Source of the DNA: Gemmatimonadales bacterium | Lineage (GTDB): Bacteria > Gemmatimonadota > Gemmatimonadetes > Gemmatimonadales > GWC2-71-9 | Assembly (NCBI GenBank): GCA_041613315.1 | Contig: JBFJHJ010000016.1 | Span: 1-61,326 of the forward strand | Reading direction: 5' to 3' | DNA length: 61,326 nt | Shown here: one piece after another, positions 20,557 through 51,475 of the stretch | Layout: each line of letters starts with the position of its first letter | How positions within the stretch are numbered: position 1 is the stretch's first letter | Position numbers and translations under genes: made by a program | Notes under the pieces: generated by a model | Told to the model about the DNA's origin: nothing | Database searches by the model: none | The model's input: the letters and a program-made list of their open reading frames with translations, nothing else

Positions 20557-21675
20557 TCAGGCGATGGGCGCCGGCTCGGGCTCGTACGCGCAGAACGGAT
20601 CTGAGCCCAGGTAGTCGCCCGTCATGGCGTACGCCCGGGCCCGGGAGCCGCCGCACGCCCAGCGGAATGCGCAGCGTCCGCACTTGCCGTGCAGGAGATC
20701 GGCGTTGCGGAGCTCCCGAAGCGCCGGGGCGTTCCGGTAGATGTCGGAGAGCCGTCGGTCCCGCACGTTGCCGAGCAGCGGGAATGGCAGGAACCCAGCC
20801 GGATGTACGTCGCCGCGGTGCGACACGAAGATCACGCCGTTGCCGTCCCGGATGCCGAACCCCATGCGCTTCGCCGCGCGGGCGATCTCGGTCGGCGGCA
20901 TCCCCTCAGCGAGGCGACGTTGGATCCAGTAGCGCCGGTAGTGCGGCGCCTCGACCGTCCCGACGTGAAACGGCGCGTCCCGCCCGATCTCCTCCACCCA
21001 CGCAAACAGTGTCTCCACCTCCTGCGCGCTGGGAATCCCGAGCTCCGTGCCGCGCCCCACCGGGACCAGAAGGAACAGGCTCCAGCGCCGGACCGGGGGA
21101 CACGCGCCCTCGCGCAGCAGACGGAAGAGTGCCGGCAGATGGGGGAGCGTTTCCGCCGTCACGGTGGTGTTCACCTGCACCGGGATGTGGAACTCCCGTG
21201 CCCACTCGAGCGCCTGGCGCGAATGGCCGAACGTTCCCGGGACGCGGCGAAACGCGTCGTGTACCTCAGCGGAGGGCCCGTCGAGGCTGATCCCCATAGC
21301 CGCGATGCCCAGCGCCCGGAACCGACGGACGGCATCCCGGGTCAGGGTCGGTGTCGTGCTCGGCGTGATGGACACCGGCAGTTGGATCGAGCGCGCGTAC
21401 GCGACGAGATCAAACACGTCGTCGCGTTTCATCGGGTCGCCGCCGGTGAGGATGAGCATGCTGCCCATGCCCTTGATGTCGCGCATCAAGGCCGCGGCTT
21501 CTGCCGTCGTCAGCTCCGCCGGATCGCGATGCGGGATCGCGTCGGCCCGGCAGTGCCGGCACGCCAAGTCGCACGCGATGGTGGTTTCCCAGTACACGTT
21601 GCGGGGCGCCCGGCCATAGACGAATCCAACGTGGGGCGAACCCACCGCCTCCGCGTTCAGCGACATGCTCGTCAC
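20557..21675 (-). CDS. Radical SAM/SPASM protein, AhbD/NirJ-like
   Basis: WETTIACDLACRHCRA, LTGGDP; SPASM GKCGRCAFRWACGGSRARAY...DPFC. Confidence 0.85.
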   Translation of the reverse strand: MTSMSLNAEAVGSPHVGFVYGRAPRNVYWETTIACDLACRHCRADAIPHRDPAELTTAEAAALMRDIKGMGSMLILTGGDPMKRDDVFDLVAYARSIQLPVSITPSTTPTLTRDAVRRFRALGIAAMGISLDGPSAEVHDAFRRVPGTFGHSRQALEWAREFHIPVQVNTTVTAETLPHLPALFRLLREGACPPVRRWSLFLLVPVGRGTELGIPSAQEVETLFAWVEEIGRDAPFHVGTVEAPHYRRYWIQRRLAEGMPPTEIARAAKRMGFGIRDGNGVIFVSHRGDVHPAGFLPFPLLGNVRDRRLSDIYRNAPALRELRNADLLHGKCGRCAFRWACGGSRARAYAMTGDYLGSDPFCAYEPEPAPIA

Positions 21676-21842: not shown

Positions 21843-22403
21843 CTAGCGGGTGACCTCCACGCGCAGCGCGTCGTTGAAGCGGTTGAAATAGCTGAACAGG
21901 CCTGCTACCAGCGCGATCTCGACGATCGCGCCCTCGTCCCAATGCCGGGCCAGCTCGGCATACACCTCGTCGGTCACGGCGTGTCCGCTGTCGGCCATGC
22001 TCTCCGCGAACCGCAGCGCGGCGAGCCAGTTCGGGCCCATACCGTCGAACGACGCCTCGACCTCGCGGCCTTCCTCCGGCACCTCGATCCGCACCGCGGC
22101 GACCCACCCGTCTCCGGCACCCAGCCGCCTTGCCAAGGCGGTGTGGGACGCGAGTCAGTAACGGCACTGGTTGATCGCCGAGACCCGGACCGCGATCAGC
22201 TCCTTGAGCACGGGCGGCACCTCTCCCTCGGTCATGACGGTCCGAAAATGCGCCAGCATCGTGGTGAGATGCGCGGGCCGCGCCGCGACGGTACGGAACA
22301 TGTTGGGGATGTTGCCGCGCTCTTTGCGGTACGTCTCGAAGATCGTGCGGACTTCGGGCGTCACCTCGCCGGGATCGCGCGGCCGGATTCGTGGGTTGCT
22401 CAT
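21843..22403 (-). CDS. AhpD/carboxymuconolactone decarboxylase family peroxidase, predicted selenoprotein (CxxU, TGA at 22155-22157)
   Basis: ORFs 22155..22571 and 21843..22136 are in one frame: KELIAVRVSAINQCRY-TGA-LASHTALARRLG...FSYFNRFNDAL; TGA at the second Cys of CxxC. Confidence 0.85.
22120..22147 (-). promoter_or_regulatory. Putative bacterial SECIS hairpin of the AhpD-like gene
   Basis: CCCA-CA-CCGCCTT-GGC-AAGGCGG-C-TGGG; G-starting apical loop about 20 nt after UGA. Confidence 0.65.
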
Positions 22404-22416
22404 GGGCTCTCGTGGA

Positions 22417-22674
22417 TCAGTCGGTACAGTCGCCGAGCGGGTACACGAACCCGCAGTTCGGACAGGGATGCTTGCAGCCGGCGGGCGCAGGTTCGACCTC
22501 GAACCCGCAGCGGAGGCACCGGGGGACTTCCGTGCTGTTGGACGTGAGCAGTACGCCGTGAGCCGAGACAAACGTCACGGCGCCGGGCGCCGACGATCCC
22601 GTCCGGTGCTCGGGGTGCGACTGTGCACCGCCCGGACCAACAGCCGGTTTGCCGCTCACCGCATCATCCCGCAA
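22417..22674 (-). CDS. Small Cys-rich zinc-ribbon protein (start uncertain; GTG at 22578 possible)
   Basis: CLRCGFEVEPAPAGCKHPCPNCGFVYPLGDCTD*; fills the gap between the MBL and AhpD genes. Confidence 0.6.
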   Translation of the reverse strand: MRDDAVSGKPAVGPGGAQSHPEHRTGSSAPGAVTFVSAHGVLLTSNSTEVPRCLRCGFEVEPAPAGCKHPCPNCGFVYPLGDCTD

Positions 22675-23314
22675 AGCGATACGCCCCCGTCAGAAACGGG
22701 TTTGTCGCGCGCTCCCGACCGATCGTGGTCTCGGGGCCGTGCCCCGGGTACACCACCGTGTCGTCGGGGAGGCTCAGGAGACGATCGCGGATGCTCGCGA
22801 GCAGCGTCGCCGTGTCGCCTCCGGGCAGATCCGTGCGGCCGATGGAACCCGCGAACAACGCGTCACCGACGAACGCCACCCCGTGCCCCACCAGGGCCAC
22901 CCCGCCGGGGCTGTGTCCCGGTACGTGCCGCACCGCGAAGCTCAGCGCGCCGAGGCGCAGCGTGTCGCCCTCCGCCAACGCCCGGTCGGGTGGGGGCGGG
23001 GGCTCCGCCCGGAGCCCCAACCAGGTTCCCTGCTCCCCGATGGCGTCGTAGAGCGAGCGGTCGTCGGGGTGCAAGTACACGGGCACGCCGGTTGCTTCCG
23101 TCACGCGGCGCACGCCGAGGATGTGGTCCAGATGGGCATGGGTGAGCCAGATCGCGCGGAGTGTCAAGCCGTCGGTCGCAAGCCGGCGGAGAAAGAGATC
23201 CGCTTCCTCACCCGGATCGATCAACGCGGCGTCCCGCGAGGCCGGGTCGGCGACGACGTAACAGTTCTCCTGAAAGGCGCCGTTGGTCAGGCAGATGACC
23301 TCAGGTCGAGGCAA
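22664..23314 (-). CDS. MBL-fold metallo-hydrolase (glyoxalase II-like, YcbL/GloC family)
   Basis: THAHLDH, PGHSPG, GDALFAGSIGRTD, YPGHG. Confidence 0.92.
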   Translation of the reverse strand: MPRPEVICLTNGAFQENCYVVADPASRDAALIDPGEEADLFLRRLATDGLTLRAIWLTHAHLDHILGVRRVTEATGVPVYLHPDDRSLYDAIGEQGTWLGLRAEPPPPPDRALAEGDTLRLGALSFAVRHVPGHSPGGVALVGHGVAFVGDALFAGSIGRTDLPGGDTATLLASIRDRLLSLPDDTVVYPGHGPETTIGRERATNPFLTGAYRFAG

Positions 23315-24305
23315 CGGCCTTGGACTCCTTCCGCTCGTCCCCCTGCGAAGTGTCCCGCCGCTCCGTCAGGTATTTCTCCGCCGCGATGGCCGCCGTGGTG
23401 GCGTCCCCCACCGCGGTGGTGATTTGCCGCGTGAGCTGCGCGCGGAGATCGCCGGCGGCGAAGAGCCCGGGGATCGAGGTCATCATATGCTGGTCGGTGA
23501 TGATGTACCCGTTCGCATCGTGGTTCACGTGCCCCTTCACGAGCCCGGTGTTCGGCAGGAAGCCGATGAAGATGAACACGCCGCCCACCGGCAGTTTCGA
23601 CGTCTCGCCGGTCGCCGTGTCCGTGAGCCGGAGGTGGGTGACGCCGGTTGCGGTGCCCTCGATCTCCTCCACGACCTTGTTCCACACGACCGCGATCTTC
23701 GGATTGCTCAAGGCGCGCTTCTGGATGATGGGGGAGGCCCGCAGCTGGTCGCGCCGGTGCACGATGTACACCTTCTCCGCGTACCGCGTCAGGTAATCGG
23801 CCTCCTCCACCGCCGCGTCACCACCACCCACCACGGCCAGCACTTCCCCCTTGAAGAACGCGCCGTCGCACACCGCGCAATACGACACACCCTTCCCCGC
23901 GTATTCCCCCTCCCCCGGCACGCCCAGCTTCCGTGGGGTGCCGCCGGCCGTGAGGATCACGACGGGCGCCCGGTACGTCGCCCCGAGCTGCGTACGCACG
24001 TCAAACGTGCCGTCCGCGCGGCGCACGATCTCGTCGGCGGTGTCCATCACGATCTCGGCGCCGAACTTCTTCGCGTGGCTCGTCATCTTCTCGGCGAGAT
24101 CCCGCCCGAGGATGCTCTCGAAACCGATGTAGTCCTCGATCACCTCGGTATTCAGGAGCTCCCCGCCGGGGACCCCCCGCTCGATCAACAGCGTGTCGAG
24201 CATCCCGCGCCCCGCATACATCGCGGCGCAGAGGCCGGCGGGGCCTCCGCCGACAACGATCACGTCGTGATTCCGCGTCGTCTTTCCGTCCGTCTTCCGT
24301 GTCAC
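23301..24305 (-). CDS. trxB: Thioredoxin-disulfide reductase
   Basis: GGGPAG, GVSYCAVCDG, GGGDAAVEEA, FAAGD...RQITTAVGD. Confidence 0.96.
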   Translation of the reverse strand: MTRKTDGKTTRNHDVIVVGGGPAGLCAAMYAGRGMLDTLLIERGVPGGELLNTEVIEDYIGFESILGRDLAEKMTSHAKKFGAEIVMDTADEIVRRADGTFDVRTQLGATYRAPVVILTAGGTPRKLGVPGEGEYAGKGVSYCAVCDGAFFKGEVLAVVGGGDAAVEEADYLTRYAEKVYIVHRRDQLRASPIIQKRALSNPKIAVVWNKVVEEIEGTATGVTHLRLTDTATGETSKLPVGGVFIFIGFLPNTGLVKGHVNHDANGYIITDQHMMTSIPGLFAAGDLRAQLTRQITTAVGDATTAAIAAEKYLTERRDTSQGDERKESKAVAST

Positions 24306-24750: not shown

Positions 24751-25194
24751 CTACCCCCCGAGCGCCGCCAGCACCTCCTGCGCGCCGGGCGCGCCGCGCG
24801 TCGCGAACACCACCGTTCCATCCTGCTCGACCAACACGACGCTCCGAGCGATCCCCTTGCCATCGTCCTTCAGCGCGCCATAGGCGCGGGCGGTGACGCG
24901 GGCCGGATCACTGAGCAAGGGGAACGGCAGCTTGAGCTTCGCCGCGTAGCGAGCGTGGCTCTCAGCACCGGCAGGGTTCACCCCGAACGGCTGCACGTTC
25001 GACCCTCGGTATCGCTCGATCTCATCGCGCACGGCGGAGAGTTGGCGGTTTCACCCGGGGGTGTTGTTCCCCGGATAGAAGACAAGGAGGGCGCGCGCGT
25101 CTCCCAGCACCGCGCCCAGTCCGTAACGGCGTCCGTCGGAGGCCTCCAGGTCGAACTCCAGCGCCGGAGCGCCGACAGCGATCAGTTCGGTCAC
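24751..25194 (-). CDS. Peroxiredoxin (BCP/AhpC-TSA), predicted selenoprotein (TxxU, TGA at 25051-25053)
   Basis: GTG start overlaps PHP stop; VGAPALEFDL...VFYPGNNTPG-TGA-NRQL...LPFPLLSD...IARSVVLV in one frame; TGA at the peroxidatic Cys. Confidence 0.87.
25021..25041 (-). promoter_or_regulatory. Putative bacterial SECIS hairpin of the peroxiredoxin gene
   Basis: CTC-TC-CGC-[CGT]-GCG-c-GA-t-GAG; bulged stem, GU-containing loop about 17 nt after UGA. Confidence 0.45.
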
Positions 25195-26048
25195 GGCTCC
25201 ACCTCCGACGGGGTGCCGCGCTCCTGATGCAAGTGCTCCAGCGCGGCGAGCCACGCGGGTGGGACGGGAAGACTGCCCAGCGAGGCCCGCTCCGGTGGCC
25301 CCACCGCGCCGTCCCCGTGCCAATCGGACCCGCCCGTGAGGAGCAGGCCGAGCTGGCCGGCGGCCGCCTCGATTCGTCGCTGCCGCTCTGCGTCGTGCGA
25401 CGGATGAACGACCTCCACGGCATCCACGCCCGCGGCGGCGAGACTCGCGAGCACGGTGCGGTTCGCCCGGCCGCCCAGATGCGCCGCGGAGGATACCCCG
25501 GCCAGGCGGCGGACCAGGGCCGTTACCTCCGCGACGGCCGGCAACCGCTTCGGGACGAACGCCGGGCGCCCGCGACCGAGGTAGCGCTCGAACGCGGCCG
25601 ACACGTCGGTCACGGCGTCCCGGGCGACCAGCGCCCGCGCTACGTGGGGCCGACCGACCGCGCCGCCGTCCGCCTCGCTGAGCACCTCGTCGAGCGTGAG
25701 CCCGATCCCCGCCGCGCGGAGCCGGCGGACCATCTCGGCCGCGCGCCGACGCCGGTGGCGGCGTTGGGCCGCCAGAAACGTGTTGAGCTCGGGGGCGTCC
25801 ACGGGCAGACAGTAGGCCAGCAAGTGCATCTCCCCCCAACCCACCGCCACGCTGAACTCACAGCCCGCCACGACGCGAACGCCAGCGTCCCGTCCCACAC
25901 GTCGCGCATCCGCGACACCCTCTATCGTGTCGTGGTCCGTGAGGGCGAAGACGTCGAGGCCGGCCGCCGCCGCGCGGCGCGCGACGTCGCCGGGAGCGTA
26001 CTCGCCATCGGAGGCGGTCGAATGGACGTGGAGGTCGACGCCCGCCAC
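25191..26048 (-). CDS. PHP domain phosphoesterase (TrpH/YciV-like)
   Basis: DLHVHSTASDG, ALTDHDT, GRPHVA, TGGSDWHG. Confidence 0.92.
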   Translation of the reverse strand: MAGVDLHVHSTASDGEYAPGDVARRAAAAGLDVFALTDHDTIEGVADARRVGRDAGVRVVAGCEFSVAVGWGEMHLLAYCLPVDAPELNTFLAAQRRHRRRRAAEMVRRLRAAGIGLTLDEVLSEADGGAVGRPHVARALVARDAVTDVSAAFERYLGRGRPAFVPKRLPAVAEVTALVRRLAGVSSAAHLGGRANRTVLASLAAAGVDAVEVVHPSHDAERQRRIEAAAGQLGLLLTGGSDWHGDGAVGPPERASLGSLPVPPAWLAALEHLHQERGTPSEVEP

Positions 26049-26329: not shown

Positions 26330-27733
26330 TCAGACCGCGCCTTCGGGAAACTGCTCCAGGTCTCGCTTCACGTCGGCCATGAAGCGGTCCGCGTCGGCGC
26401 CGTCCACGATGCGGTGGTCGTACGCCAGCGAGAGCATGCCCATCATCCGGATGGCGATCACGTCCTGCCCGCCGTCCAGCGTGAGCACCTTGGGCCGCTT
26501 CTCGATGGCCCCGACACCCAGAATCGCCACCTGCGGCTGGTTGATGATCGGGTCGCCCACCCAGCTGCCGAACACGCCGGGGTTGGTGATGGTGAAGGTT
26601 CCCTGTTGCACCTCGTCGGGACTCAGCTTCTTGGTGCGCGCCCGTTCGCCAAGATCCGCGATGGTCTTCGCGATTCCGAGCAGGGACAGCTCGTCCGCGT
26701 GCTTCACCACGGGGACGATAAGACCCCAGTCGAGCGCCACCGCGATGCCGATATTGATCGGCTGTCGGTAGATGATGTTGGTCCCACTCACCGATGCGTT
26801 CACCACCGGGTGCTGCCGGAGATTGTCGGCGACGACCTTCGTGATGAACGCGAGGTACGTGAGTTTCGTCCCTTGTTCCTCGTACTCGCGCTTCTTCCGG
26901 TCGCGCAACGCCGCGATCCCGCTGTAATCGACCTCGTAGTAGCTCACGACGTGGGCCGAGATCCGTCGCGACACGACCATGTGATCCGCGGTGAGCCGGC
27001 GAATGCGACTCATCGGCTCGACGCGATCGCCGGGCCACGCCTCTACCGTGGGGTGTTGGACCGCCCCAGCCGCCACGGTCCCGGCGGGAGGGGCAGCGGG
27101 GGCAGCACCTGGGCGCGCGGCGCCCGACGCGATGTAGGCGAGGATGTCCTTCTTGGTCACGCGGCCGGCATAGCCCGTGCCTTCAATGCGGTTAATGTCG
27201 ACCTGGTGCTCCGCCGCGATCTTGCGGACGAGCGGTGTGGAGCGGCGGCGCAGGCGGTCCTCTTTTGTCTCATCGGCTCCGCCCCGCCCGTCTCCGGCAG
27301 GGGCGGCAGACGCGGGAGGAGCGGCGGCGGCGGCGGCGGCAGGCGCGGCCGCCTGGGCCGCCGGGCGCTGCCGCTGGCGGCGCTCGGGCGGCGTCTCCGG
27401 CCGCCTCTCGGCTTCCTTGGTCGCCGCGGCGGGGGCTTGCTCCTCCCCTTTCTCTTTCTTCTGTGGTGCCGCTCCCACCTCCGCCGCACCTTTGTCCGTC
27501 TCGATCACGGCCACGACCGTTTGGACCTCGACCGTCTGCCCCTCCTGTACCTTGATCTCGGCGAGGATGCCGGCGGCGGGCGACGGAATTTCCGCGTCCA
27601 CTTTATCCGTCGAGATCTCGAGAATCGGCTCGTCGCGCTTGACCGAGTCGCCGACGTTCTTCAGCCACTTGGAGACGGTGCCCTCGGCAATCGATTCTCC
27701 CATCTGCGGCATGATGACGTCTACGCGGGCCAT
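26330..27733 (-). CDS. 2-oxoacid dehydrogenase E2 (dihydrolipoamide acyltransferase)
   Basis: Lipoyl MPQMGESIAEG...ISTDKVDAE; E3-binding TPLVRKIA...GRVTKKD; catalytic DHRIVDG. Confidence 0.95.
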   Translation of the reverse strand: MARVDVIMPQMGESIAEGTVSKWLKNVGDSVKRDEPILEISTDKVDAEIPSPAAGILAEIKVQEGQTVEVQTVVAVIETDKGAAEVGAAPQKKEKGEEQAPAAATKEAERRPETPPERRQRQRPAAQAAAPAAAAAAAPPASAAPAGDGRGGADETKEDRLRRRSTPLVRKIAAEHQVDINRIEGTGYAGRVTKKDILAYIASGAARPGAAPAAPPAGTVAAGAVQHPTVEAWPGDRVEPMSRIRRLTADHMVVSRRISAHVVSYYEVDYSGIAALRDRKKREYEEQGTKLTYLAFITKVVADNLRQHPVVNASVSGTNIIYRQPINIGIAVALDWGLIVPVVKHADELSLLGIAKTIADLGERARTKKLSPDEVQQGTFTITNPGVFGSWVGDPIINQPQVAILGVGAIEKRPKVLTLDGGQDVIAIRMMGMLSLAYDHRIVDGADADRFMADVKRDLEQFPEGAV

Positions 27734-27813
27734 GTATCCCACTCCTCGGTCGTCGAACAGGCGGGCGGTAAGGCGGTCGGTCTGCTCCCGGGTCGGCCAA
27801 CCGCGTGCCCGCA

Positions 27814-27837
27814 TTAGCGGCTTAGCGCCTTAGCGGC
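27814..27837. repeat. 8-bp tandem repeat x3
   Basis: TTAGCGGC TTAGCGCC TTAGCGGC in the E1beta-E2 intergenic region. Confidence 0.7.
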
Positions 27838-29871: not shown

Positions 29872-30087
29872 TCAGGGGGTGCGCCGCGCGCCGTACCCCG
29901 CGGCTTCCACCGCGGCAATCAGCTGCTCGACCGAGACGCGCGCGTCGTCGAGGTCCACCTCCGCCTCCCCGCGTTTCAGGTCCACGGACGCCCCGTACAC
30001 CCCTCGCACGTCGTTCAGCGCGCGCTCGACCGTGCTCACGCAGTGACCGCAGGTCATGCCAGTGATGGTGAGTGCAATAGACGCCAT
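29872..30087 (-). CDS. copZ: Copper chaperone (HMA domain)
   Basis: ITGMTCGHC...VEAAGY. Confidence 0.9.
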   Translation of the reverse strand: MASIALTITGMTCGHCVSTVERALNDVRGVYGASVDLKRGEAEVDLDDARVSVEQLIAAVEAAGYGARRTP

Positions 30088-30157
30088 AACGTCACGGTAC
30101 CGGGCCGCGGGTGCCGGAGCATCCCTCACCCCAACACCTGAGACTCGATCAGGTCCC

Positions 30158-30448
30158 TCAGTACGCCCCTCGCACCTCGTACTCCCGATCCACCAGCTTG
30201 TGCACCACGGCCAGGAACCGCTTCGCCACCTTGTCCGCCTCGCTCTCCCCCACCTGGTCGGTCGCGACTCGCACCAGCGTATAGTGGCCGCCCTCGGCTT
30301 CCACCGTCACGGCGATCCGTCCCACCGGTCCGGAAAAGACCCGGTGGCGCTGGCCGGCCTCCTCGGCGGCGAGGCGGGCGCCAAGAAACCGGTCCGCCTC
30401 CCGGAGCACCGCGTCGGGCCGCGCGGACGTGCGGTGAAAGTAGCGCAT
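30158..30448 (-). CDS. Hypothetical protein
   Basis: 96-aa ORF starting 3 bp after the copA stop. Confidence 0.7.
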   Translation of the reverse strand: MRYFHRTSARPDAVLREADRFLGARLAAEEAGQRHRVFSGPVGRIAVTVEAEGGHYTLVRVATDQVGESEADKVAKRFLAVVHKLVDREYEVRGAY

Positions 30449-30451
30449 GGA

Positions 30452-33004
30452 TCAGGTCACCGGTGACGGGGTGAAGCGGCGGAGGCGCAAGCTGTTACCG
30501 ACCACGCTCAGGCTGGACAGCGCCATCGCCGCACTCGCGACGATCGGACTCAGCAGCAACCCCGTGAATGGATACAACACGCCCGCGGCCAGCGGTATCC
30601 CCAGCACGTTGTACACGAACGCGAAGAAGAGATTCGTGCGGATCGTCCGCATCGTCCGTCGCGACAGTTCGATCGCGGTCACGACCGCGGTGAGATCGCC
30701 GCGAAGCAACGTGATGTCCGACGCTTCGATCGCCACATCGGTTCCCGTACCGATCGCGAACCCCAGGTCGGCGCGCGCGAGGGCCGGCGCGTCGTTCAAC
30801 CCGTCCCCCACCATCGCCACCACGTGCCCATCCTGCTGGAGCCGGACGATCTCGTCGGCCTTGTCGCGGGGATCCACTTCGGCGATCACCCGATCGATCC
30901 CCACTTCCTTCGCTACGAGCCGCGCGGCCACTTTACTGTCGCCGCTCAACAAGTACAGGCGCAGTCCCATGGCCTTGAGTCGGCGTACCGTCGGCTTGAC
31001 GGACGGCTTGAGCTCGTCCGCGATCACGATGAGGCCCTGGACCAAATCGTTCACCACCAGCACCACGGGCGTGCGGCCCGCCAGCAGGTGCCGGTCCGCG
31101 TCCCGCTCCAGCGAACCCAAGGAAAGGCTGCGCTCTTCCGTGTGCCGAACGCTGATCACCTCGACCAGGAACTTCCCGACGATGCCCCGCACGCCGCGAC
31201 CTTCCATGGCCACGAAACGCTCGACCGGGAGCACGTCGACGGACTTCGCCTTGGCCGCCGACACGATCGCATGCGCTAGGGGATGCTCGGAGCGCCCCTC
31301 CACCGACGCCGCGAGTCGCAGGACCTCGGCCGGGCTCACGACGCTCCCGTCGGCGCGCTTGAGCCCCAGCACGTGCGTCACGGTGGGCTTGCCCTCGGTC
31401 AGGGTCCCGGTCTTGTCGAACACGACGATCCCGATACGTTGGACGGCCTCCAGCGCCTCGCCCCCGCGTATGAGAATCCCGTGCTCCGCCCCTTTGCCGG
31501 TCCCCACCATGATGGCCGTCGGGGTCGCGAGACCCAGCGCGCACGGGCACGCGATCACCAGCACCGTGACGAGGGCCACGGTGCTGAAGACCAGCACCGG
31601 CGGGGGCCCCACGACGAACCACACCACGAACGCGGCGAGGGCAATGGCGATGACGATGGGGACAAACACGCCCGCCACGCGGTCCGCCAGCCGCTGGACC
31701 GGGGCCTTGGAGCCCTGGGCTTCCTCCACCAAGCGGACGATCTGCGCCAACGCGGTGTCTTTCCCGACCGCCGTCGTCCGGTAGGTCAACGAGCCGGTCG
31801 TATTGATGGTGCCCCCGAACACCGCGTCCCCCCCCGTCTTGAGCACCGGCATCGGCTCGCCGGTGAGCATGGCCTCAGTGACGCTCGACTCACCGAATAC
31901 GACCACGCCGTCCACGGGCAGCGTCTCTCCCGGTCGCACGATGATCGCATCACCGACCCGGACCTCCTCAATCGGGAGATCGAGCGGCTCGCCCCCGCGC
32001 TCCACGCGCGCCGTCTTGGGCCGGAGGCCCAGGAGCCGCCGCACCGCCTCCGACGTCTGGCCCTTGGCGCGCGCCTCCAGCAGGCGCCCCAGCAAGATGA
32101 GGGCGATAATCGCGCTCACCGCCTCGAAGTAGACGTCGGCCGCGAGCCCGGCCCGCTCGAACAGCCCGGGGAACAGTGTGGCGACGGCCGAATACAGGAA
32201 TGCCGCCCCGGTCCCAACCGCGATCAGCGTGTTCATGTCCGCGGTCCGGTGTTTGAGACCGCTCCACGTCCCGCGGAAGAACTGCCGGCCGCTCCAGCCG
32301 AGCACGGGGATCGTCGTGGCCAGCATCACGAGCTTGAGGAGCCCGGGCGAGGCGTCGGCGAAGGCGTACAGGCCCGGCGCGAGGGTGCGAACCACGCTGT
32401 CGAGCGGTTGCAGCAGCCGCGCCACCAGGTCGTGCTCCTTCACCGTCATCCCGCCCATCAAAGGCATCGAGGCGATCATGGTGAAGGCGGCGACGGCCGC
32501 GGCGAGGGCGAACTTCCAGGTGAGCCAGCGGATCTCCGCCCGGTGTCGCAGCCGCTCCCGCTCCACCGGGTCCTCCGCCGCGATGGGCGCGGCGACGGTG
32601 AACCCCGCCCGCTCGACGGTCTCTTCGAGTTCCCGCCCGGTGACGAGCCCCGGGACGTACTCGACGCGCACCTGCTCGTTCGCCTGGTTGGCCGCCACGG
32701 CCAGCACGCCCGGCAGCTCGCCGAGCCGGCGCTCCAATCCCGCCACGCCCGCGGCGTAGTGGAGCCCTTCGACCGCAAACGTCGCCGTGGCCTTGGCACA
32801 GTCGTAGCCGGCGTCTCGCACGGCTTTGACGAGCTCTGCCAGCGACGTGCGGCCGTCGTCCACGGTCACCGTGGCCTTGCCGGTGGCGAAGTTGACCGCC
32901 GCGTCGCTCACGCCGGGTGCCTGGCTGAGCCGCTTCTGCACCGTGACCGCGCAGGCGCCGCACGTCATGCCCTCGACGGGCAGCGTGATGCGGGCGCTAG
33001 GCAT
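30452..33004 (-). CDS. copA: Cu(I)-translocating P1B-type ATPase
   Basis: [42 protein letters not shown] and MxxSS TM motifs. Confidence 0.95.
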
Positions 33005-33428
33005 GCTTCGCGTGGCCCTTGCCGAGATTGGCGCGCGCACCGTCCCGGCCCACCTGGGCGACCACGCGGCCCTTCATCACGCCGCGTCCGCAGGTGAAGA
33101 GGTAGTCGCCGGGCTGCTCCGGCGTGAATTCGACGGCGGTGGTTTGGAACGCGGGGAGCTCGAGATCGATGCCGAACCGGCGGAACCGCACCCGCTCAGA
33201 GCACTCGGCCGTCTCGTCGCGGTAGAACAGCAGCCGGACCGGGCGGCCGGCCTCCACGAACACCGTATCGGGGTCGTAGCCGCCCCGCACCACGACCCGG
33301 ACTTCCTGTGCCGCATCTCGTGGCGGCAGGGGCCGCTGCACCGGCGGCCGCGGCCCCAGGAAGAACCACAGCTCGGCGCCGATCAGCACCGCGCCCAGCA
33401 CGATCACCGCAAGGTCGACTGCGGTCAC
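32997..33428 (-). CDS. Membrane-anchored cupredoxin-domain protein (CupA-like)
   Basis: N-terminal TM helix, [21 protein letters not shown]; overlaps copA start. Confidence 0.85.
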
Positions 33429-50998: not shown

Positions 50999-51475
50999 TC
51001 AGGCGAGCGCCTCCAACTGGCGCAGCAGCTCGGCGTTCTCGCGCCGGTGCCCCAGTTCCCGCTCGAGATGGGCCCACCGGACGATCCCGGCCCGGTCCAC
51101 GATGAAGTACGCCCGCTGCGAGAAGAAGAGGTCGTCGATGAGCGTGCCGTAGGTGCGGCTGACCATGCGTTTGAAATCGCTCAGGAGATCGATACCGATG
51201 CCGTGTTGCGCCTTGAAGGCGCTGAGCGTCGGGACCGAGTCGACGCTGATGCCGAGCACCGTGGCGTCCAACGCTTCGAAGCGAGAGAAGTCCGCACTGA
51301 ACGCACACAGCTCCGCCGTGCATACACTGGTGAACGCCAAGGGGAAAAAGGCCAACACCACGTTTGACCGATCGCGGTAGTCGGACAAGCTGATGTCGCG
51401 ACCGGCGGTGGACGGCAGCGTGAAGTCGTGCGCCGGCTGGCCCGGCGCGGGTGGCGCGGAGGTGCGGTCGACCAT
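50999..51475 (-). CDS. Peroxiredoxin (AhpE/BCP-like, Cys-containing)
   Basis: [35 protein letters not shown]. Confidence 0.92.

Follow-up and report, generated by a model that had tools for sequence, protein, structure and literature searches.

A BCP/PrxQ-like peroxiredoxin gene of Gemmatimonadales with a UGA very likely read as selenocysteine

Our analysis concerns a 61,326-nucleotide stretch of DNA from a Gemmatimonadales bacterium (contig JBFJHJ010000016.1 of assembly GCA_041613315.1), here called the window, whose minus strand carries a peroxiredoxin gene with an in-frame TGA at the position of the peroxidatic residue. The gene is part of a same-strand block in which the order is E1 alpha, E1 beta, E2, PHP, peroxiredoxin, DUF309, trxB, MBL hydrolase, a small Cys-rich ORF and an AhpD-like CxxU gene. 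An earlier reading of the letters alone (the sequence-only reading) had proposed a selenoprotein at this place. The features discussed below are these:

25197..25206, minus strand: Shine-Dalgarno-like sequence (GGAGG-type, 4-12 nt 5' of the GTG)
24751..25194, minus strand: putative Sec-peroxiredoxin coding sequence, BCP/PrxQ-like (147 aa, GTG start, TAG stop, no Cys codon)
25051..25074, minus strand: PxxxTxxU active-site motif (Pro41, Thr45, Sec48), from sequence and alignment
25051..25053, minus strand: in-frame TGA, codon 48, peroxidatic position, putative Sec (conserved TGA, aligned with the invariant Cys of full-length homologues)
25021..25041, minus strand: candidate bacterial SECIS spanning +10 to +30 from the UGA (synonymous freezing; apical G-U, with 25033-25031 as the loop in the fold of the sequence-only reading)
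25036..25038, minus strand: Ser53 codon within the candidate SECIS (codon +5), by alignment where CxxxxC-type PrxQ has its helix-2 resolving Cys
24844..24846, minus strand: catalytic Arg117 (invariant in the alignment; matches the Arg of the solved BCP 5enu)
23301..24305, minus strand: thioredoxin reductase gene trxB, two genes downstream of the peroxiredoxin (TIGR01292 over its cut-off), a putative electron source via thioredoxin
21843..22403, minus strand: AhpD-like CxxU selenoprotein gene (TGA 22157-22155; profile match and conserved TGA), alternative candidate reductant
26330..27814, minus strand: 2-oxoacid dehydrogenase E2 (lipoyl) subunit, located upstream of the peroxiredoxin within the block (profile match)
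50999..51475, minus strand: AhpE-like Cys peroxiredoxin with CxxxxC, outside the system on present evidence

The GTG of the peroxiredoxin gene overlaps the TGA stop of the upstream PHP gene, and its GC3 is 0.80 5' of the in-frame TGA and 0.85 3' of it. The sequence-only reading had described a 147-aa read-through protein in which FYPGNNTPG-TGA-NRQL matches the PxxxTxxC active site, with FPLLSD, the catalytic Arg and no cysteine at all. Each of these elements is present: the TGA (25053-25051) is codon 48, FPLLSD occupies residues 91-96, the Arg is residue 117, and the read-through frame holds zero TGC or TGT codons. This copy also lacks any internal Met or Trp codon, a trait that is not conserved among its orthologues. 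Both Sec genes of the window (24751-25194 and 21843-22403) stop with TAG and the seven other block genes that were checked stop with TGA; many peroxiredoxin orthologues have TGA as their terminal stop, unlike the source genome's copy. A scan for sigma-70-like promoters between 21500 and 30600 gave 0 sites and was uninformative, and among the sequencing runs none with RNA data covering the locus was listed. The block is flanked upstream by genes for CopZ and a copper P-type ATPase (29872-33040, minus strand) and downstream by a TIGR04053 radical SAM/SPASM gene (20557-21675, minus strand). The small Cys-rich ORF (22417-22575, minus strand; start not fixed) lies just upstream of the AhpD-like gene, has the pattern CxxC...CxxxCxxC and ends in DCTD.

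The read-through protein matches Pfam AhpC-TSA (PF00578) over profile positions 1-123 of 124 (E 6.5e-27; 94.4 bits against a cut-off of 26), and in an alignment of 29 proteins Pro41, residue 48 and Arg117 are invariant and Thr45 is nearly so. An AlphaFold model with Cys in place of Sec has a pLDDT of 96.6, and its best fold match is Sulfolobus Bcp1 (3drn; TM 0.89, rmsd 1.6). The domain match, the PxxxTxxU motif with Arg117 and the thioredoxin-like peroxiredoxin fold of the predicted model support the proposed identity as a peroxiredoxin. Which subfamily it belongs to is less sharply defined. Bcp1 is also its best sequence match among solved structures (E 2.5e-14), where BCP/PrxQ chains lead; AhpE structures score nearly as well as BCP in Foldseek against the model (TM 0.87-0.90), but the sequence match to M. 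tuberculosis AhpE (1xvw) is weaker (E 4.6e-10). None of the NCBIfam peroxiredoxin models scores over its cut-off, the bcp equivalog (PRK09437) giving 53.3 bits against 140 and the 233-position PrxU model (NF040737) 24.8 bits against 270. By sequence the protein would therefore belong to a BCP/PrxQ-like branch that is not the E. coli-type bcp equivalog. The second Cys expected of a 2-Cys PrxQ, in helix 2 or helix 3, is absent from it.

In the source genome (83% complete), selA, selB and selD each score over their cut-off, and selD carries a TGA of its own. The genome also has a canonical tRNA-Sec with a UCA anticodon that is the only UCA-anticodon tRNA found. Use of Sec appears to be widespread in the lineage, with selA found in 37 of 40 relatives. 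At the active site of the peroxiredoxin, TGA is present in 20 of 21 orthologues from the 41 related genomes searched and in 100 of 101 loci of at least 48% identity, a set that is biased toward close relatives and contains some duplicates. An even sample of 301 genomes of the phylum gave TGA in 71 of 80 homologues (one of the 71, G170, is from an unpublished genome, on which no other claim rests) and TGC for Cys in the other nine, of which seven lie in the same gene block and two are distant CxxxxC homologues. The related loci carry names of Gemmatimonadota, mostly Gemmatimonadales. Aligning the homologues, which the sequence-only reading had suggested as a check, places the TGA opposite the invariant Cys of the full-length proteins, and the 47 codons upstream of it are conserved among relatives.

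That reading had also named a sequencing error at 25051 as what would overturn it. The TGA would then be such an error, or a nonsense mutation, in a gene for a Cys peroxiredoxin or in a pseudogene, and in favour of this the source genome is a metagenome assembly in which at least one conserved gene, cox3, has an isolated TGA. The cox3 TGA, which is unrelated and served as a negative control, recurs in only 1 of 23 genomes with a match; it was rejected as a recoding event and is likely an error or a private nonsense change (G000:C13:49478, plus strand, G000 being the source genome; it occupies the site of a conserved Trp, 18 codons from the end). The peroxiredoxin TGA, on the other hand, is kept in homologues across several families, the frame downstream of it is open, with conserved residues and frozen synonymous sites, and contigs from three public runs (possibly the source samples) span it with zero differing letters. 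The conservation across genomes refutes the error or pseudogene reading, and we regard it as extremely improbable. In the same marine runs, contigs of other organisms pile up on the stretch 25011-25083, which contains the UGA and the candidate SECIS, and on no other part of the locus; a 46-base piece within it is shared exactly with those contigs and is usable as a lineage marker.

Could the UGA encode Trp or Cys, or could translation be confined to the 93-aa ORF downstream of it? Gene callers do report the downstream fragment in 20 of the 120 homologues listed. The genetic code of the source genome appears to be standard, however, since seven neighbouring genes terminate in TGA; the only UCA tRNA is the canonical tRNA-Sec, and the fragment lacks the active-site motif entirely while the codons upstream of the UGA are conserved. 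These readings are very improbable. With the Sec machinery, the 71 of 80 homologues with TGA and the frozen synonymous sites described next all behind it, the proposed recoding is well supported, and the UGA at codon 48 is very likely read as selenocysteine.

The most informative evidence for a SECIS lies in codon usage. Across 106 distinct Sec sequences, a single form accounts for 528 of 529 codons at +4 to +8 from the UGA, where 204.5 are expected from codon usage; at the other conserved four- and six-fold sites of the Sec forms the major codon accounts for 43-71% of cases, and for 87% at +2. At codon +3, 94 of the 106 have CAA despite a strong bias toward CAG. The one SECIS base that varies is +27 (59 T and 36 C of 95), which is unpaired in both of the folds given below. 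Covariation cannot be shown, since the sequence is otherwise invariant. Such synonymous freezing argues strongly for a SECIS downstream of the UGA. For the bulged, CGT-looped hairpin that the sequence-only reading had drawn there, the picture is mixed. It can indeed be drawn at 25041-25021 (+10 to +30, with a CGU loop, at -5.1 kcal/mol) and its synonymous sites are conserved, but an alternative fold with a 5-nt loop (-5.4 kcal/mol) comes within 0.3 of it and its stability is not beyond chance when compared with shuffles (z +0.2 to +1.4 in four windows), so that folding energy was rejected as evidence for a SECIS. In the available text of PMC13188914 the bSECIS model has a loop of 3-9 nt, G in the first two loop positions, a spacing of 16-37 nt and an energy of -7.5 kcal/mol or lower. 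The SECIS prediction that had been called for agrees with this geometry in loop size, in G-U at loop positions 2-3 and in the 17-nt spacing from UGA to loop, and the conserved core, at -5.1 to -6.5 kcal/mol, is weaker than the model's energy. Longer windows reach -13 kcal/mol with other pairing, likewise not above shuffles.

Besides the peroxiredoxin, the source genome has no fewer than six UGA genes belonging to known selenoprotein types, and in six of them a hairpin also starts +10 to +20 after the UGA. They are a Sec-type selD (L004; G000:C2:62887, plus strand), a Sec-type formate dehydrogenase alpha gene (fdhA) with an E. coli-like hairpin (L149; G000:C10:60823, plus strand), three genes for AhpD-like CxxU proteins and a candidate for a thioredoxin-like UxxC protein with TYGUINC, fused to NHL repeats (L146; G000:C3:44058, plus strand). 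Two of the AhpD-like genes are CFYU candidates outside the window (L147, G000:C28:40237, and L148, G000:C3:110922, both plus strand), and when read through both are over the TIGR01926 cut-off. A codon-bias scan for UGA read-through returned 114 candidates of 31695, mostly noise; the list given here is a minimum, since that scan missed selD and the AhpD-like gene of the window.

The Ser53 codon lies inside the candidate SECIS. About 60% of PrxQ proteins have a resolving Cys in helix 2 and about one third have no resolving Cys, according to the available part of PMC4749874, so a peroxiredoxin without one is not unusual in itself (PMC4749874); the canonical BCPs of these same genomes hold it at the helix-2 position. 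At codon +5 all 106 Sec forms have Ser and 10 of 29 Cys forms have Cys, all ten in one lineage. It might be thought that a SECIS generally forbids a resolving Cys here. This was rejected, as two Sec-BCP genes of another lineage of the phylum keep UxxxxC, and replacing Ser by Cys at +5 leaves the predicted hairpin no less stable. By sequence comparison, a SECIS that covers the resolving-Cys codon with Ser is a lineage-specific feature. The two UxxxxC genes (L201, G145:C3, and L202, G074:C27, both canonical BCPs) were chosen by eye as real among the matches listed from a loose-pattern search that was mostly noise (127 of 301 genomes matched, and the reversed control matched widely). Three further Sec-peroxiredoxins of the phylum comprise one UxxxxS BCP and two of a distinct branch without a helix-2 Cys (L185, G029:C2; L186, G017:C2; L188, G038:C31), and from such sequences it seems that Sec entered peroxiredoxins several times in the phylum. 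Endings like the DCTD of the small Cys-rich ORF appear in other genomes among the matches listed from the same search. The claim of a peroxiredoxin with no cysteine at all, correct for the source genome, is true of 69 of 95 distinct full-length Sec orthologues; 26 carry a Cys elsewhere (in 19 of the 95 at residue 120, in a β-strand), so the absence of any Cys is not a family-wide trait.

True Cys orthologues are found at the DNA level in the same gene block. Their codon match at +4 to +8 is relaxed to 79 of 112, which is above the 48.9 expected, in a set of 29 sequences of which 22 were found with a pattern fixing the first residues after the Cys and from which two distant homologues were left out. 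In these sequences, which as kin are not independent, the residual match has the look of a remnant of an earlier SECIS. For tree building, the active-site residue and the ten that follow it were masked, and subsets of 60, 57 and 57 rows were used, without near-duplicates and long branches; from the third subset the far BCP outgroup was dropped too. The trees require 3 to 5 changes between Sec and Cys, and the Sec forms as a single clade are rejected (AU p 0.002). With starred support, two Cys groups are placed within or next to Sec rows. The best tree embeds a large Cys group in the Sec forms, although a basal position for it is not rejected (AU p 0.198). The sampled CxxxxC Cys forms fall in one supported clade, so CxxxxC arose in one or two events. 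Reversion to Cys, followed by regain of CxxxxC, is the likely course suggested by these sequences. Loss of the Sec machinery was considered as the cause and explains the Cys forms only partly, as selA is still present in 5 of 9 genomes with Cys forms, against 18 of 20 tested genomes with Sec forms.

Taken together, we put at about 0.88 the probability that this is an intact gene for a BCP/PrxQ-like peroxiredoxin in which UGA is decoded as Sec and which reduces peroxide through a single Sec and is recycled by an outside thiol, most plausibly that of thioredoxin. In such an enzyme SelB would almost certainly bind the hairpin at +10 to +30 and deliver Sec-tRNA(UCA). From family chemistry, Sec48, held by Pro41, Thr45 and Arg117, would very likely attack H2O2 or an organic hydroperoxide and become a selenenic acid. 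It would need an outside thiol, because established peroxiredoxin chemistry calls for one where there is no resolving Cys; in the available text of PMC4749874 the resolving role in 1-Cys peroxiredoxins is filled by a small thiol or by a Cys of another protein. The thiol of another molecule would then form a mixed selenenyl-sulfide with Sec48 that is subsequently reduced. Thioredoxin together with the neighbouring NADPH thioredoxin reductase is our best guess for this reductant, and the odds on it are about even. All 65 orthologous loci whose downstream flank reaches 3.5 kb or more contain trxB, and a canonical thioredoxin is present in 18 of 18 tested relatives with the Sec-peroxiredoxin (none was found in the source genome itself, which is 83% complete). 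Variable genes, short-chain dehydrogenases, often lie between the peroxiredoxin gene and trxB. The closeness of trxB may be inherited gene order, since E2-PHP is still there in 5 of 5 genomes from which this peroxiredoxin is absent; where the peroxiredoxin is present, E2 occurs in each of the 58 loci whose upstream flank is 3 kb or longer and PHP in 78 of 78 with enough flank.

Two other routes of recycling deserve weighing. Resolution by a low-molecular-weight thiol and a glutaredoxin-like protein is known for some 1-Cys peroxiredoxins, but no gene for thiol biosynthesis or for a glutaredoxin was identified within the gene block; this route is possible and the less favoured one beside thioredoxin. 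The second would recycle Sec48 through the AhpD-like CxxU selenoprotein, itself reduced by the lipoyl arm of E2, in the manner of the DlaT-AhpD-AhpC relay that the available text of PMC12995895 gives for M. tuberculosis. E2 and the AhpD-like gene do flank the peroxiredoxin gene on one strand. Of 40 relatives, 8 carry the AhpD orthologue; these 8 all belong to the 19 that have the Sec-peroxiredoxin, and the count for the 21 others is 0. The orthologue lies within 6 kb downstream of the peroxiredoxin in 26 of 56 loci, and 26 of 27 matches have a stop codon at the active site. All 9 genomes that gave a match to the gene have TGA in the orthologue, and in the window a strong hairpin follows the UGA. 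Yet 11 of the 19 relatives with the Sec-peroxiredoxin have no AhpD orthologue, these relatives as kin are not independent, and E2-PHP stays where the peroxiredoxin is lacking. The protein, moreover, falls just under the cut-off of TIGR01926, a 'peroxidase-related' type and not an established peroxiredoxin reductase. We think this route unlikely. A broader scheme is likewise improbable: an all-selenium peroxide relay from the E2 lipoyl arm through the AhpD-like CxxU protein to a 1-Sec PrxQ without a resolver, in which the SECIS would lock the resolving-Cys codon to Ser and Cys revertants would lose the SECIS and could regain CxxxxC.

A Cys-type peroxiredoxin is present at 50999-51475, as the sequence-only reading stated, but its suggested role as a selenium-independent backup finds no support as a specific pairing. 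Among solved structures its best match is M. tuberculosis AhpE (E 6.6e-22), the protein is only 27% identical to the Sec-peroxiredoxin, and genes of its type are not enriched beside it (10 of 19 relatives with the Sec-peroxiredoxin and 16 of 20 without), which led us to reject it as a dedicated backup. It may overlap the Sec enzyme in function and is not its paired selenium-independent copy.

Public protein records hold the peroxiredoxin as a fragment in 20 of the 120 homologues listed, the source genome's own record being 81 aa, so the present reading corrects an annotation in which 81-93 aa fragments without the active site stand for this enzyme in a common soil and sediment lineage. The family is a natural experiment, with Sec forms that have no resolving Cys, Cys forms at the same locus with a decaying SECIS, and a CxxxxC lineage. 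Comparison of these forms could show what Sec brings (rate, resistance to overoxidation or freedom from the need for a resolving Cys) and which partner recycles a 1-Sec peroxiredoxin. By title and the start of the abstract, papers retrieved on Gemmatimonad- selenoproteins or selenoproteomes included none on a Gemmatimonadales peroxiredoxin family, and those on PrxQ with SECIS and resolving Cys, on SECIS constraint of protein sequence or on fossil SECIS elements included none on Gemmatimonadales; a search on the resolution of PrxU or 1-Sec peroxiredoxins found no paper. The genome list of BSepDB, in the part available, includes Gemmatimonadota (PMC13326102), and this database may already list the gene.

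Among known systems the closest are the BCP/PrxQ proteins (Bcp1 3drn, Burkholderia 5enu and Xanthomonas PrxQ), which share the YP.D/N.TPG motif, FPLLSD and the Arg with the protein described here and differ from it in that their peroxidatic Cys is replaced by a putative Sec and their helix-2 resolving Cys by Ser. The M. tuberculosis 1-Cys peroxiredoxin AhpE (1xvw) resembles it in having a single catalytic chalcogen and a similar fold score, but is the weaker match in sequence, and the AhpE-like gene of the window is the paralogue at 50999. PrxU of Eubacterium acidaminophilum, reportedly validated by experiment (Sohling 2001), is likewise a Sec-containing peroxiredoxin, but its model is 233 positions long and the present protein is a short BCP/PrxQ-like one, far under the PrxU cut-off. 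In the available portions of the earlier surveys, the TxxU peroxiredoxins are a catalogued family of prokaryotic selenoproteins (PF00578/COG1225) with 43 Sargasso Sea genes in 2005 (PMC1088965), 12 genes and 5 Cys-to-Sec events were counted for the peroxiredoxin selenoprotein family (PMC1794560), and the family stands in Table 1 of PMC13188914 with PrxU of E. acidaminophilum as its reference. The gene described here has the same PF00578 domain, PxxxTxxU, in-frame candidate SECIS and widespread Cys homologues as that catalogued family, and differs in its Gemmatimonadales lineage and perhaps in having no resolving Cys. The enzyme class is already known, and the gene very likely adds a new Sec-peroxiredoxin member to it.
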